This document shows, one piece after another, positions 15,001 through 21,000 of a stretch of 64,000 nt of DNA (position 1 is its first letter; every line of letters begins with the position of its first letter). Position numbers: made by a program. The stretch is from the NCBI RefSeq assembly GCF_013167455.1, contig NZ_CP038328.1; one strand, written 5' to 3'. The stretch is from Escherichia coli O157:H7. GTDB taxonomy: Bacteria; Pseudomonadota; Gammaproteobacteria; Enterobacterales; Enterobacteriaceae.

Positions 15001-18000
15001 GAGATGCTGTCGGCGATTATGCAGGAGCTGGGCTATGTGGGCGTGATGGCGATGGAGTGTTTTGTCACCCCGCAAGGTCTGCTGATCAACGAACTGGCAC
15101 CGCGTGTGCATAACAGCGGTCACTGGACACAAAACGGTGCCAGCATCAGCCAGTTTGAGCTACATCTGCGGGCGATTACCGATCTGCCGTTACCGCAACC
15201 AGTGGTGAATAATCCGTCGGTGATGATCAATCTGATTGGTAGCGATGTGAATTATGACTGGCTGAAACTGCCGCTGGTGCATCTGCACTGGTACGACAAA
15301 GAAGTCCGTCCGGGCCGTAAAGTGGGGCATCTGAATTTGACCGACAGCGACACATCGCGTCTGTCCGCGACGCTGGAAGCCTTGATCCCGCTGCTGCCGC
15401 CGGAATATGCCAGCGGCGTGATGTGGGCGCAGAGTAAGTTCTGTTAACCTGGTGCTCATTTGATTGCCGGATGCGGCGTGAACGCCTTATCCGGCCTACA
15501 CCGATCCGGTACCCATTGTAGGCCTGATAAGACGCGTCAAGCGTCGCATCAGGCATGGTGCGCCGATTGCCGGATGCTCTCATCACTACAGCGAAATACA
15601 GGTCCCCGCTTCGCCCGCCAGCGTCTCTTCAATTCGCGATAACGCCCCAATCCACGCGGGTTTACCACGGCTTCTGACATAACCACTCACCGCCGTTACC
15701 TTCGGCCCCATCGAACCATCGGCTTTGGCAAATGGCGCTAACTCATCCGGTGTGGCATGGCGAATGGCACGTTGCTGCGGCATTCCCCAGTTTTCATATA
15801 CCGCATCAGCATCGGTGAGGATCACCAGTCCATCGGCGTTAATTTGCTCGGCGAGCAACGCAGCGGCGAGATCTTTATCAATCACTGCTTCACTCCCTGC
15901 TCCGTCATCCGTCACAGGCACACCGCCGCCGCCACTGCAAATCACCACATGCCCCTCTTTGAGCAACAACTCGATGGCTTCGCTGTCGAGAATTTTACGC
16001 GGTTGCGGAGACGCCACCACCCGGCGCAAATATTTACCATCACGTTTCATCTGCCAGCCGTAAGCCGCTTCCAGTGCCTCTTGTTCTTCTGGCTGATAAA
16101 CCGGACCAATAAATTTCTCTGGCTGCAAAAACGCCGGATCATCAGGCGAAACTTCAATGCGCGTCCGCACCGTCGTGACAGGCGGCATCTGCGGCTGTGC
16201 GCTCAAACTCTGCGCCAGCATATAGCCAATCATCCCCTGACTTTCTGCCACCAGCACATCCAGCGGATACGGTTCTACCTCTTTCCACGCCAGATTCTGC
16301 AATGCCAGCAGCCCCACCTGCGGCCCGTTGCCGTGAACAATCGCCAGCCGATAAGAACGGGCCAGGCGCGCCAGCGCGGGTACAGCACTGGCGATATTGC
16401 GATATTGATTTTCTGCCGTCAGCGCCTCACCGCGCTGGAGTAAGGCGTTGCCCCCAAGAGCTACAACCAGTGTTTTCATGGTTTTCCTTGTAATAATTGT
16501 TGGCCAAGCCAGAACCCCAGCAGTGTATCTGCCCCTGACGTATGCCCCAGCGCCAGCAGCGAATCAATCGCAACAGCGGTACGTTTCGGGCAACTCAGAG
16601 CATGAACAAAGTGCAGGAGTGGCGAGGCGAAATATCCTTGCGCGGCATAACGTAAATAACTGACGCTCACCGCTGTGGTAACGAGTTGCAGATTGTCGGA
16701 ACAGGCAAAAAACGGACGACCGGAGCGCGCATCTAAAGCACCATAATACCAGGCCGCCAGCAGCATTCCGCTCAGCGTGTCATCATGACTTGGCGTTAAT
16801 CCGGGGCCTTTACCCAGCCAGTGCCGCCAGTCGGTCTTAACGCCATTGAGCGCGGCCTGAAAACAGTGACGAAACTGGCGTAACTCAGCAGGCAGCGGAT
16901 CGCTTGCCGCCAACGCCAGTGGCCCGAAAAGCCCGGTTTCCTCCGCGCGTTGCATCCATGCAGCTGCAAGTGGTTGAGGATGCGCAGGCGGCGTAATACG
17001 CAGCAAACAATAACGCTGTGGCTGTTTAACCGTGAAACGCCCGAGGCGAATCCCTTGAGCCACAACCTGTGGTCGTTCATTGCCGCATAATCCACCGCAT
17101 AACGCATCGAATTGCGCACGGCGAAGCACCCATCCTCCGGGGCCGAAACCACTACCCTGACGATGCAGCGTTAACAGTTCGCCGCTTTCCGTCATCAGGT
17201 TAATCGCCCGCCGCCACACTCCCGCTAACCGCCAGGACTGGCGATAATTCGGTGCGCTACTACTGGCAAGCAGAGGATGGATGATCGTCATTACGCGTTC
17301 CTCAACCAATCCCCATGCTTTCAGCCAGTGCTTCCAGCGCCTGTTCAAAGCACGCCAGCGGTGCCCGCACGGTGCCTGCGCCAATCTGCCCGATCCCCGC
17401 CTCTTTATGGGCGATACCGGTATTGATGAGTGGCGTAATGCCGGTTTCTACCACGCGACGAATGTCCAGTCCCAGGCACGCGCCCTGAAAATCCCAGCTT
17501 GGGATCTGCAACTGCATATTGCGTTCAAGGTAAATTTCCGCCATCTCTTCAGATACCGCCCTGGCCGCTTCCATGCCACTCGCACCGACAAAGCGCGTTA
17601 CGCCAGGCGCTGCGATCATTGCCGCACCTCCGATACCAAAGGTTTCGGTAATCGCGCTATCGCCCATATCCGGGTTCGCCTGCTCCTGCGAGAAGCCGGT
17701 GAAAAACAGACCTTGCGGAGTGTTTACAGGCGCAGTAAACCAGCGTTCGCCCAGCCCGCTTACCCGAATCCCGAACATATTGCCGTTGCGGGTCATTGCC
17801 GTGACGATGCTGCCTGCGCGGATCATCGCGCCAGCATCCATCGCCGCCTTGCAGTAAGCCATCGCGAGGTTGAGGAAGAACTGATCGGTCACGCTGAGGA
17901 AATCCATCACTTCCGCGATGTGCTGTTTATCATGATCGAGGCGAGCAATTTGTGGGGCCAGCGCACGCATTAACAGTGCTGAGGAAGCAATATTGCGTTG

Positions 18001-21000
18001 ATGGAACTCATCGCCCATCGTAATGCCCTGCGCCATCATCGCAGTAAGATCGATACCGCGCTCCATGCGCCCCAGCGCCGCGCTTAATACTGGCATTAAC
18101 ACATCGCGCATCCAGCGATGGCGAGTCAGGACATCTTCGCCGTAAGCGCCAAAACGCATCACTTTGCCGATACCTTCGTTGAGGTTGCAGTACGCCCGGT
18201 TGCCGTCGGTCACGTTCTCGACCACCAGCATCGGCATACTGGCAGAAGTAATACCGCCCATTGGCCCGACGGCATTCACATGGTGACAAGGAATGAAGTT
18301 CACTTCCCCCTGCTCCAGTATTGCCAGCGCCTGCGCTTCATCTTTCGCCCAACCTTCGAACAGACATGCGCCCACGCACGCCCCTTTCATGGGTCCGGTC
18401 ATCTCCTGCCAGCGCATTGGCGGCCCGGCGTGAAGCAGTGTTTTGCCCTCGTTTAGTTCGCTGATAAGTGAAGAAGCCGGTTGCACATCCAGCCAGTGTG
18501 GACGAGCGCGACGAATTTGTTCGATAACCGCAGCATTGGCTTGCGCCACTGATGTAAACATGAGAACCCCTTATTGCAAACGTTCTAATAAACGAGCCAG
18601 TTTTTTATTGCCGCCGGCGACTGGCGACCATTGGTAATGCACAACCGGTTTGCTGGCGCTTTGTAGCTCCAGCGCAAAACTGCGTAATCCGATGTTAATC
18701 ACGGCGACGTTTTCCAGTAATGACGGTGTGTGTTGCTGTGCGGCAGGCGAGAGCGGATGAATTAACGCTGCCGCCAGCAAGGTGGCTTCCGGTAGCGAAC
18801 TCACGACCGCAATCCCCGCATCTTCCAGCGTGGCGATTTGCTGCGAGCGGCATTGCGGGTCACGTTCAGTGCCTGTCACCGTGGCAATGGCATACAGTGG
18901 TTGATTGTCTGAACGCGCAGCACAGGCTTTTTGCCAGGCGCTTACCAGCGAGGCGGCAGGATCGGCGGTCGCACCGAAGCCAATCACGACATCAAGCAGC
19001 AGCACACGCACTTGCGGTTTAGCGCCGAGATCGGTAATTAACTGGTTGCGTAAGGTTGGGTCGATCATCGGATGGGGACGCCCGACGGTGTAGAAATCAT
19101 CGCCGAGGTCAATAATCTGGTGGCCATCGGCGTCCAGCATCATGCCGTGATGATGGGCATCATCGGCTTCCACGCCAAGGTGTCCGGCAAGTAATCCCGC
19201 CGCTTCGGCAGCCAGCGTACCGCCGGTATACAAACCGCAAATAAATCCGCTGCTGGCAGGCATTATCGCGTTACGTCGCGCCGTAACGCGTGAAAGCAGG
19301 CAAGCCAGGCGTGCGGCCTCATCCAGCGAGGAGGCAAACCAGACATTCTCGTCGCGGGCCACCGCCGGGGTATAACCTAAAAACAGCGCCACCGTCGGTT
19401 TGCCGGTTGCTTTCATGGCATTAACAATTTTCAGACGCACCGCTTCGGCAGGTGGTTTTGAAACAAATGCCAGCACTTCGCTTTTCTCGTCTGCACTGAG
19501 CATTTCCAGCGCCGTCAGCGCACTGATGCCGCCCACTTCACGGCTGAGGTCGCGGCCGCCAAGGCCAATCGCGTGAGTAATTCCCTCCCCTGCCAGCGCA
19601 ATCTGCGAGCACAGCTCCTGAATCCCGGTACCGGAAGCGCCAATGACGCCAATGTTGCCTTCCGGCATCACGTTAGCAAAAGCCAGCGGCGTGCCGGCAA
19701 TCATCGACGTACCGCAGTCCGGCCCCATCACCAGCAAGCCTTTTTCCCGCGCGCGGGTTTTAAGTTGGATTTCATCTTCCAGCGTGACGTTATCGGAGAA
19801 CATCATCACGTTGAGGTTGCGATCCAGCGCCTGATTCGCCAGCTCCGCCGCATACTCGCCAGCCACTGAAATCAGCGCCAGATTGGCATCGGGTAATTTC
19901 TGACAGGCACTGTCCCAGCGACGCACCTGCGTCAACGCCTGGCTGCTGCCTGACCCCTGCGCCAGTTGTTTTAGCGCCTCTTCAAGCTGCTGCATAATCG
20001 CCTGCGCGATCCCCGCATCCGCCGCTTCGCTACGAATTGCCACGCAAATATCGTTCGGCGTGGCGTTATTAAAATCGTCATGCCAGAAACCTGTGGTATC
20101 TAATAACGCTTTATTGGCGGGCGTACCCATCATTACGGAAACATCATCAACATTTTCTGATTCGCTGAGTTTTCGTGAAATAATCATTAAACTGACCGAA
20201 TCCTGAAAACACCCTTTTTTAATAAAGGCGTGGATCATAACAACTCCTTAAAAATTGCACCCATGGCAATTGCACGAGCAGTGTTAATGTGGCGATTACG
20301 GTATCGATGACAACGAGTAAATAAGGTGATGAATATCACACAGGGATTATTAACAAAAGAATTCAAATAACCGCCATGCTATTACGTGTTATTTTTTAAT
20401 AAGCGTGGTTGTTTTAAAAACCAGGTTAAAAGCGAGCGGATTATCAAATAAATTCTAACTATATTTTTTTGCCTGTCTGGATCACATAATCCAGATATTT
20501 TCCCTGTATGTTAATTGCAGTCATGCTTCACACCGTCGTTAAAAAGGAAGACAGATGAAAATCAGTCGGGAAACACTCCACCAGCTAATTGAGAATAAAC
20601 TCTGCCAGGCTGGGTTAAAACGTGAGCACGCTGCAACCGTGGCTGAAGTATTGGTTTATGCCGATGCCAGAGGGATCCACTCTCATGGCGCGGTGCGCGT
20701 GGAATACTACGCGGAACGCATTTCAAAAGGCGGCACCAACCGCGAACCGGAGTTTCGTCTTGAGGAAACCGGGCCGTGCTCGGCAATTTTACATGCCGAC
20801 AATGCCGCCGGACAGGTCGCGGCGAAAATGGGTATGGAACATGCCATCAAAACCGCCCAGCAAAATGGCGTTGCGGTGGTCGGTATCAGCCGGATGGGTC
20901 ACAGCGGCGCAATCTCTTATTTTGTGCAGCAGGCAGCCCGCGCCGGATTAATTGGCATTTCGATGTGCCAGTCCGATCCGATGGTGGTGCCGTTTGGCGG

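Follow-up and report, generated by a model that had tools for sequence, protein, structure and literature searches.

An ordinary, intact allG (ylbE) in the allFGHK operon of Escherichia coli O157:H7, beside a damaged entry to the allantoin pathway

In a 64,000-nucleotide stretch of an Escherichia coli O157:H7-type chromosome (NZ_CP038328.1; hereafter the window), the interval 17302..18561 on the minus strand is almost certainly an ordinary, intact allG (ylbE), the second gene of the allF-allG-allH-allK operon. An intact ylbE is the usual state in E. coli, the current K-12 MG1655 reference included; the gene, its intactness across the species and in MG1655, and what its product does biochemically are already known from the literature. 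The point of interest in the allantoin pathway of O157:H7 is that the entry steps have been lost throughout the lineage, rather than the intactness of allG.

The allG gene and its operon

The ORF listing and a direct reading of the DNA agree exactly on a single uninterrupted frame of 419 codons plus stop, with an ATG start, in the position where an earlier note on this DNA had placed an intact ylbE. The gene name proposed there also holds: the product matches Pfam PF06545 (AllG) across profile positions 1-215 of 215 at 326.7 bits (cut-off 27; E = 7.7e-98), and its gapless alignment with K-12 YlbE shares 418 of 419 residues, the sole difference being G328S. This ORF is a real gene, well beyond chance, and the plus-strand ORFs overlapping it (e.g., 17281..17973) were set aside as its shadows. 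The Pfam family, now named 'AllG', was formerly DUF1116; a search of NCBIfam for a model of YlbE or YlbF returned 0 families and thus no curated equivalog name. The annotated ylbE copies of many O157:H7 genomes are 100% identical to the window ORF across 1260 bp, and a ylbE match with at least 80% coverage is found in 5,417 of 5,426 complete E. coli genomes, a count that scores presence by coverage and gene names rather than intactness.

The four-gene context fdrA-ylbE-ylbF-ybcF was likewise confirmed, with all its members on the minus strand: fdrA (allF; 18571..20238) codes for an intact 555-aa succinyl-CoA-synthetase-alpha-like subunit of oxamic transcarbamylase, ylbF (allH; 16476..17291) for its 271-aa third subunit, and ybcF (allK; 15586..16479) for an intact catabolic carbamate kinase of 297 aa. 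Thus, allG lies between allF and allH, followed by allK, and the divergent allDCE operon adjoins. Gaps of 9 and 10 nt separate the first three genes, and the last two overlap by 4 nt. Direct reading further reveals a Shine-Dalgarno-like AAGGGG (18567..18572, minus strand) that shares bases with the TAA stop codon of fdrA (18571..18573) and precedes the ylbE start codon by 5 nt; with so little room between them, fdrA and ylbE may well be translationally coupled. Independent support for AllF and AllG as a unit comes from the FdrA-AllG fusions seen in all seven of the ~1,000-aa relatives tested. Relative to K-12, YlbF is identical, YbcF differs at 3 residues, and FdrA differs at 7, all of them between residues 326 and 443; the flux-redirecting laboratory variant D296Y of FdrA is absent here.

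The function of the system was measured in MG1655, where ylbE was identified as allG, a subunit of the oxamic transcarbamylase (OXTCase) AllFGH (Kim & Kim 2024, PMC11326118): deletion of allG abolished oxamate production, and the purified AllF-AllG-AllH complex, with an AllG of 419 aa, showed OXTCase activity (PMC11326118). The Km values published for the K-12 enzyme are 1.3 mM for carbamoyl phosphate and 36.9 mM for oxamate. By 99.8% protein identity and the same operon structure, the roles shown for AllFGH and AllK in K-12 MG1655 are likely to apply to the O157:H7 proteins. Briefly, AllG would join AllF and AllH in an oxamic transcarbamylase catalyzing the phosphorolysis of oxalurate to oxamate and carbamoyl phosphate, and AllK would then use the latter with ADP to yield ATP, CO2 and NH3. 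Together, these reactions would complete the 'oxamate branch', by which allantoin is degraded anaerobically.

Lesions and substitutions in the O157:H7 lineage

The earlier note had also pointed to a broken allB in this strain, and this is borne out. The allantoinase gene (26410..27771, minus strand) is a pseudogene with an in-frame TAG at codon 297 (26881..26883), where K-12 has CAG, and the PGAP annotation of an O157 record marks it with an 'internal stop'. This exact TAG allele is present in 293 of 5,426 genomes. Additionally, an 86-bp deletion has removed the 3' end of allW, and its junction recurs in 308 genomes. Thus, the allantoin pathway is damaged at its entry in this strain, and therefore the intact downstream branch probably receives no substrate from allantoin. 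The literature was searched for O157:H7 studies describing either an allantoin-related phenotype or a pseudogenized allB, and nothing relevant emerged. The accompanying proposal, that a functional downstream branch is kept despite the broken allB, is supported only at the level of the ORFs: allD, allC, allE, allF, allG, allH and allK are all full length and free of stops.

Two further kinds of change set the lineage apart from K-12. The first is the single replacement in AllG, where codon 328 (17578..17580, minus strand) is AGT (Ser) as against GGT (Gly) in K-12; the exact 61-mer carrying S328 is found in 296 genomes, marking it as an allele of the O157:H7 lineage. Gly328 is retained in 33 of 34 close orthologs, within an otherwise invariant motif, with the serine being unique to the present lineage among these; in the distant AllG homologs, glycine occupies the position in just 30 of 51. 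The second concerns the divergent allD/fdrA control region (20239..20554), which aligns to its K-12 counterpart with 0 indels and nine substitutions (20345, 20373, 20377, 20386-20388, 20407, 20421 and 20433). These span -107 to -195 from the fdrA ATG, and all nine fall within the fragments bound by AllS and ArcA, namely -203/-144 and -142/-83 (PMC12535856). The allS ORF itself is at full length. Taken together, G328S and the nine substitutions cast some doubt on whether the branch would function in this strain. At the level of expression, the AllD and AllE proteins have been detected in O157:H7; a search of the accessible supplements to an O157:H7 proteome paper gave no occurrence of YlbE, FdrA, YlbF, YbcF or AllB, and the absence of YlbE and FdrA adds to the doubt.

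Retention of the downstream branch

These observations lead to the question of why the downstream branch is retained. One reading, which we regard as possible but hold only tentatively, is that the intact ylbE is a relic heading for decay: with a dead allantoinase and a truncated transporter, the O157:H7 lineage might have come under relaxed selection on allFGHK, and G328S and the control-region substitutions would then be the first neutral or damaging changes. The similar genome counts for the allB TAG, the allW junction and S328 suggest that the three belong to one lineage, and both the uniqueness of S328 among the close orthologs and the confinement of all nine substitutions to the AllS/ArcA fragments are in keeping with such a process. 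However, several points speak against it: (i) none of the seven downstream ORFs has been interrupted; (ii) ylbE differs from its K-12 counterpart by 9 synonymous changes as against 1 non-synonymous change, and ylbF by 4 against 0; (iii) position 328 varies in the distant homologs, and the loop accepts insertions of S, T or A; (iv) AllD and AllE are made as proteins. Moreover, too little time has probably passed in this lineage for decay to be visible.

Alternatively, the branch might have been kept for a substrate other than allantoin, e.g., allantoate, ureidoglycolate or oxalurate taken up in the bovine gut, from which ATP and NH3 could be obtained without AllB. We consider this unlikely. In its favor, every downstream gene remains intact in the face of a fixed allB nonsense codon, and the expression of AllD and AllE as proteins would fit a pathway still in use. 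Against it, we found neither transporter nor phenotype evidence, the literature search yielded no supporting paper, and the youth of the lineage accounts for the retention equally well. We rate as improbable the broader proposal that, in an O157:H7 lineage with fixed entry lesions (allB Q297* and the allW 3' deletion) and an intact, at least partly expressed allDCE-allFGHK, the oxalurate branch could draw on a host-derived ureide independently of allantoinase. Set against such use of host ureides is the reading of a pathway beginning to decay, with AllG G328S and the control-region substitutions as its earliest steps.

Comparison with K-12 and other known systems

The least tenable proposal is that this strain keeps a ylbE lost from K-12, and with it a downstream allantoin branch missing in the laboratory reference; NC_000913.2 did carry a frameshift, as the W3110 RefSeq record does to this day, but the intact gene of NC_000913.3 refutes the proposal for the current reference and makes it very improbable overall. 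The frameshift that the earlier note ascribed to MG1655 is thus true only of the superseded version: in NC_000913.3, ylbE (b4572) is an intact 1260-bp CDS at 548357..549616, the same ORF as in the window, and the surrounding region is collinear between the two at ~98% identity. Our account of the reference history draws on NC_000913.3, on papers mapped to NC_000913.2 and on the W3110 record; a literature search for ylbE together with U00096.3 gave no match. Papers that mapped reads to NC_000913.2 list two ylbE changes, 547,694 A>G plus 547,831 +G, which they report as restoring the ORF, and independent MG1655 stocks as well as NCM3722 are ylbE+ (PMC4759930, PMC3045373). Likewise, the OXTCase activity and the allG-dependent oxamate were measured in MG1655 and with genes cloned from MG1655 DNA.

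The frameshifted allele of NC_000913.2 and of W3110 (NC_007779.1), formerly split into ylbE_1 and ylbE_2, occupies the same locus with an otherwise near-identical sequence. It differs from the window in having four rather than five G at gene positions 252-256 (18306..18310, minus strand) and A rather than G at position 114 (18448, minus strand; codon 38, GAG here and synonymous GAA there). These two sites are also the only differences in ylbE between the W3110 record and NC_000913.3, with which the window shares both the five G and G114. When the four-G allele was simulated, its product was truncated at 86 aa. Full-length exact matches to this allele number just four among 5,426 complete genomes (W3110 and the three K-12-like assemblies CIT, LIM and CAR), and the ylbE genes of W3110 RefSeq and CIT, both of which we inspected, are annotated as 'frameshifted'. 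As the K-12 contrast exists only in an outdated reference version, the finding of an intact ylbE is an ordinary one. Evolution experiments that used NC_000913.2 as their mapping reference have repeatedly reported its ylbE lesion as a 'mutation'; supposed 'K-12 pseudogenes' need checking against the current reference version.

The closest known system is, then, the AllG of MG1655 itself (b4572, YP_009029994.1), which shares with the window gene its length of 419 aa, 99.2% DNA identity, the order and spacing of the operon and the neighboring allDCE operon. In contrast to MG1655, the window strain has G328S, the nine control-region substitutions and the damaged upstream allB and allW. Further afield, AllG displays the family fold typified by PDB 3CLQ, a conserved protein of unknown function from Enterococcus faecalis V583, which was the sole match in a sequence search of the PDB; no solved structure of the AllFGH (OXTCase) complex was found there. 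3CLQ differs in coming from another species, in lacking functional annotation and in having Thr where the window AllG has S328. We also considered AllG as an SCS beta-like partner of the SCS-alpha-like FdrA, and found no fold likeness to the beta domains of SCS or ATP-citrate lyase. Finally, the classical transcarbamylases (ATCase PyrB, OTCase ArgI/ArgF and YgeW) catalyze the same type of reaction, a carbamoyl transfer to or from carbamoyl phosphate (PMC11326118). Membership of AllG in the classical ATCase/OTCase family was rejected, its sequence and fold bearing no likeness to their carbamoyl-phosphate-binding domains.

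The ylbE Gene Is Intact in Both O157:H7 and the Current K-12 MG1655 Reference

An ORF scan and direct reading of the DNA bear out the uninterrupted ORF that the earlier note had described within fdrA-ylbE-ylbF-ybcF: ylbE (allG) occupies 17302..18561 on the reverse strand, opens with an ATG and encodes 419 residues, the length reported for AllG (PMC11326118). On the same strand it is flanked by fdrA (allF; 18571..20238) and, on the other side, by ylbF (allH; 16476..17291), which is followed by ybcF (allK; 15586..16479). Spacers of 9 and 10 nt separate fdrA, ylbE and ylbF, and the ends of ylbF and ybcF share 4 nt; therefore, the four genes are tightly packed. 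A Shine-Dalgarno-like AAGGGG before ylbE, read directly from the sequence, overlaps the stop codon of fdrA. All 1260 bases of ylbE are 100% identical to the annotated gene in many O157:H7 genomes; among 5,426 complete E. coli genomes, 5,417 match it over 80% or more of its length. Hence, the chromosome is of O157:H7 type, and the ORF represents a genuine gene that is near-universal in E. coli.

The contrast previously drawn with a frameshifted K-12 reference fails, as the current MG1655 sequence (NC_000913.3) carries the same intact ORF: ylbE (b4572, YP_009029994.1) is there a single CDS of 1260 bp at 548357..549616. In pairwise alignment the proteins are identical at 418 of 419 residues without gaps, the sole difference being residue 328 (G in K-12 versus S in the window), and the genes differ by 10 substitutions and no indels.

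Origin of the Supposed K-12 Frameshift

When MG1655 reads were mapped to the superseded NC_000913.2, two ylbE differences emerged, 547,694 A>G and 547,831 +G, together described as turning the pseudogene into an ORF (PMC5460176). A ylbE+ allele is also on record in MG1655 stocks (PMC4759930), and NCM3722 has an intact ancestral ylbE (PMC3045373). We find that the first site falls at gene position 114 and the second in a five-G run at 252-256 (window 18306-18310). Simulated removal of one G from K-12 ylbE yields an 86-aa truncated product, with the other 344 codons open in a different frame, and so reproduces the old two-part pseudogene.

A four-G 64-mer probe returned five records at ≥99% identity, four of them full-length exact matches; these 100% matches are W3110 (NC_007779.1), CIT, LIM and CAR, i.e., 4 of 5,426 genomes. 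W3110 ylbE differs from NC_000913.3 at exactly two sites, position 114 and the G run, and in both records inspected, W3110 and CIT, the gene is annotated as "frameshifted" with 1259 bp. The old four-G/A114 allele (2280..3538 in the W3110 locus record; 1280..2538 in that of NZ_CP026028.1) thus persists in the W3110 RefSeq record and in the "complete genomes" CIT, LIM and CAR. The ylbE-locus coordinates of the latter three agree with the old K-12 numbering, and their sequences may have been constructed from the old MG1655 reference and not assembled independently; the CIT genome is 4,639,673 bp. Reportedly, MG1655 stocks were re-sequenced by Freddolino et al. (2012), after which the ylbE correction entered the 2013 update from U00096.2 to U00096.3. 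As the W3110 lesions lie at the NC_000913.2 sites and NC_000913.3 is intact, the frameshift is right for the superseded version and the W3110 record and wrong for MG1655 in its current version.

Two experimental-evolution studies that used NC_000913.2 for mapping list ylbE "mutations", in one case as recurrent off-pathway antibiotic-resistance hits and in the other as an adaptation restoring the pseudogene (PMC4137714, PMC5460176). Most likely, no new mutation is involved and both reports reflect the known discrepancy in the reference.

Function and Architecture of AllFGH

YlbE matches the Pfam family PF06545 (AllG, oxamate carbamoyltransferase subunit; E = 7.7e-98), and profile match, orthology, operon context and fold all place it in AllG. 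Its neighbors conform: FdrA combines CoA_binding and CoA-ligase domains (NCBIfam PRK06091; succinate-CoA ligase alpha models match it less well), YlbF matches AllH, and YbcF belongs to the amino-acid-kinase family and is a carbamate kinase in NCBIfam. MG1655 mutants lacking allF, allG or allH produce little or no oxamate from allantoin, and loss of allG leaves none detectable; full restoration needs allFGH together, and purified AllF-AllG-AllH interconverts oxamate plus carbamoyl phosphate and oxalurate plus Pi (Kim & Kim 2024, PMC11326118). AllK is the carbamate kinase of the next step, yielding ATP (PMC9843812), and AllS and ArcA activate the allFGHK operon (PMC12535856). From near-identity and the same operon structure, we infer that AllFGHK has these functions in the window strain.

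AllG belongs to an extensive family, with at least 7,999 relatives when E is capped at 1e-10; at E <= 0.001 there are 3,124 cluster representatives (50% identity). All seven of the ~1,000-aa relatives scanned, from other lineages, are FdrA-AllG fusions (P0123, P0129, P0131, P0135, P0144, P0162 and P0244), which lends independent support to the view that AllF and AllG work as a single physical unit. The fusion P0135 additionally carries a C-terminal ChrR cupin-like domain, and in P0002 and P0024, two E. coli-like variants, AllG appears to be fused to AllH. We rejected both a transcarbamylase-like and an SCS beta-subunit-like assignment of AllG, as its fold is not of the former type and bears no resemblance to the latter.

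State of the Downstream Branch

The genes allD, allC, allE, allF, allG, allH and allK retain their K-12 lengths and have no internal stops; going by the reading frames, the downstream branch would be functional. All indels but one relative to K-12 in the region are intergenic. FdrA shows seven changes (A326M, V328A, T361A, Q363H, S372G, A402T and L443S) within residues 326-443 (18910..19263, reverse strand). All fall together in the region of the CoA-ligase domain, a pattern suggestive of recombination of this segment or of local relaxation; D296, where a laboratory variant alters flux, is as in K-12. In allC (21626..22861, forward strand), 13 amino acid differences accompany 38 nucleotide differences, so that a far larger fraction of the changes is non-synonymous than for ylbE (1/10) or ylbF (0/4). 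The ybcF-purK spacer (15449..15581) has small indels and a stretch aligning twice, suggestive of REP-like repeat variation. AllD and AllE are among the proteins detected in an O157:H7 proteome study, and its accessible supplementary text lists neither YlbE nor FdrA.

Three features temper the word "functional": damaged entry steps, G328S at a conserved site and a changed control region. At the entry, allB (26410..27771, reverse strand) is indeed broken, as the earlier note had it: codon 297 is an in-frame TAG (26881..26883) versus CAG in K-12, and PGAP flags an "internal stop" pseudogene in one O157 genome record. Of 5,426 complete genomes, 293 contain the exact 61-mer with this TAG, and these apparently represent the O157:H7 lineage. 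Compared with K-12, allW (27808..29199, reverse strand), which encodes the allantoin transporter, has lost its final 21 codons (463 aa versus 484 aa) through an 86-bp deletion at the 27811/27812 junction that also takes 19 bp from the spacer between allW and allB. A full-length match to this junction occurs in 308 genomes, and PGAP makes no pseudogene call for allW. Allantoin thus probably cannot enter the pathway in this strain. That a dead entry coexists with an intact oxamate branch across the lineage may mean that another ureide is used or that decay is at an early stage; outright repurposing of the branch for another ureide in the O157:H7 lineage strikes us as improbable.

The G328S change (codon 17578..17580, reverse strand) is lineage-specific, being limited to 296 genomes. 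Residue 328 is Gly in 33 of 34 close orthologs, inside the invariant stretch TRFVGA-G, and in just 30 of 51 distant homologs; other genera have one-residue S/T/A/G insertions in this loop. The substitution is plausibly tolerated. In the AlphaFold model, residues 300-362 (~17476..17664, reverse strand) have pLDDT < 50, and this segment may act as a mobile element at the active site or at a subunit interface. It holds some of the most conserved sequence of the family (GDSAITETFGIGG...PGVTRFVGAGG).

The 316-bp divergent allD-fdrA control region (20239..20554) differs from K-12 by nine substitutions spanning 20345..20433 and is otherwise identical. All lie at -195 to -107 from the fdrA ATG, hence within the stretches to which AllS and ArcA were found to bind, with six in the AllS-binding and three in the ArcA-binding fragment (PMC12535856).

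Comparison with Known Alleles and Relatives

The structure 3CLQ, a conserved protein of Enterococcus faecalis V583, has Thr in the place of S328, and the AllG fold is without another solved relative. The K-12 pseudogene allele is absent from the window: W3110 (NC_007779.1) and NC_000913.2 combine four G with A114, whereas the window ylbE has five G. The current MG1655 gene (NC_000913.3) is, like that of the window, intact and 1260 bp long, differing in G328 versus S328. Thus, the window gene is the already known allG in its usual state.
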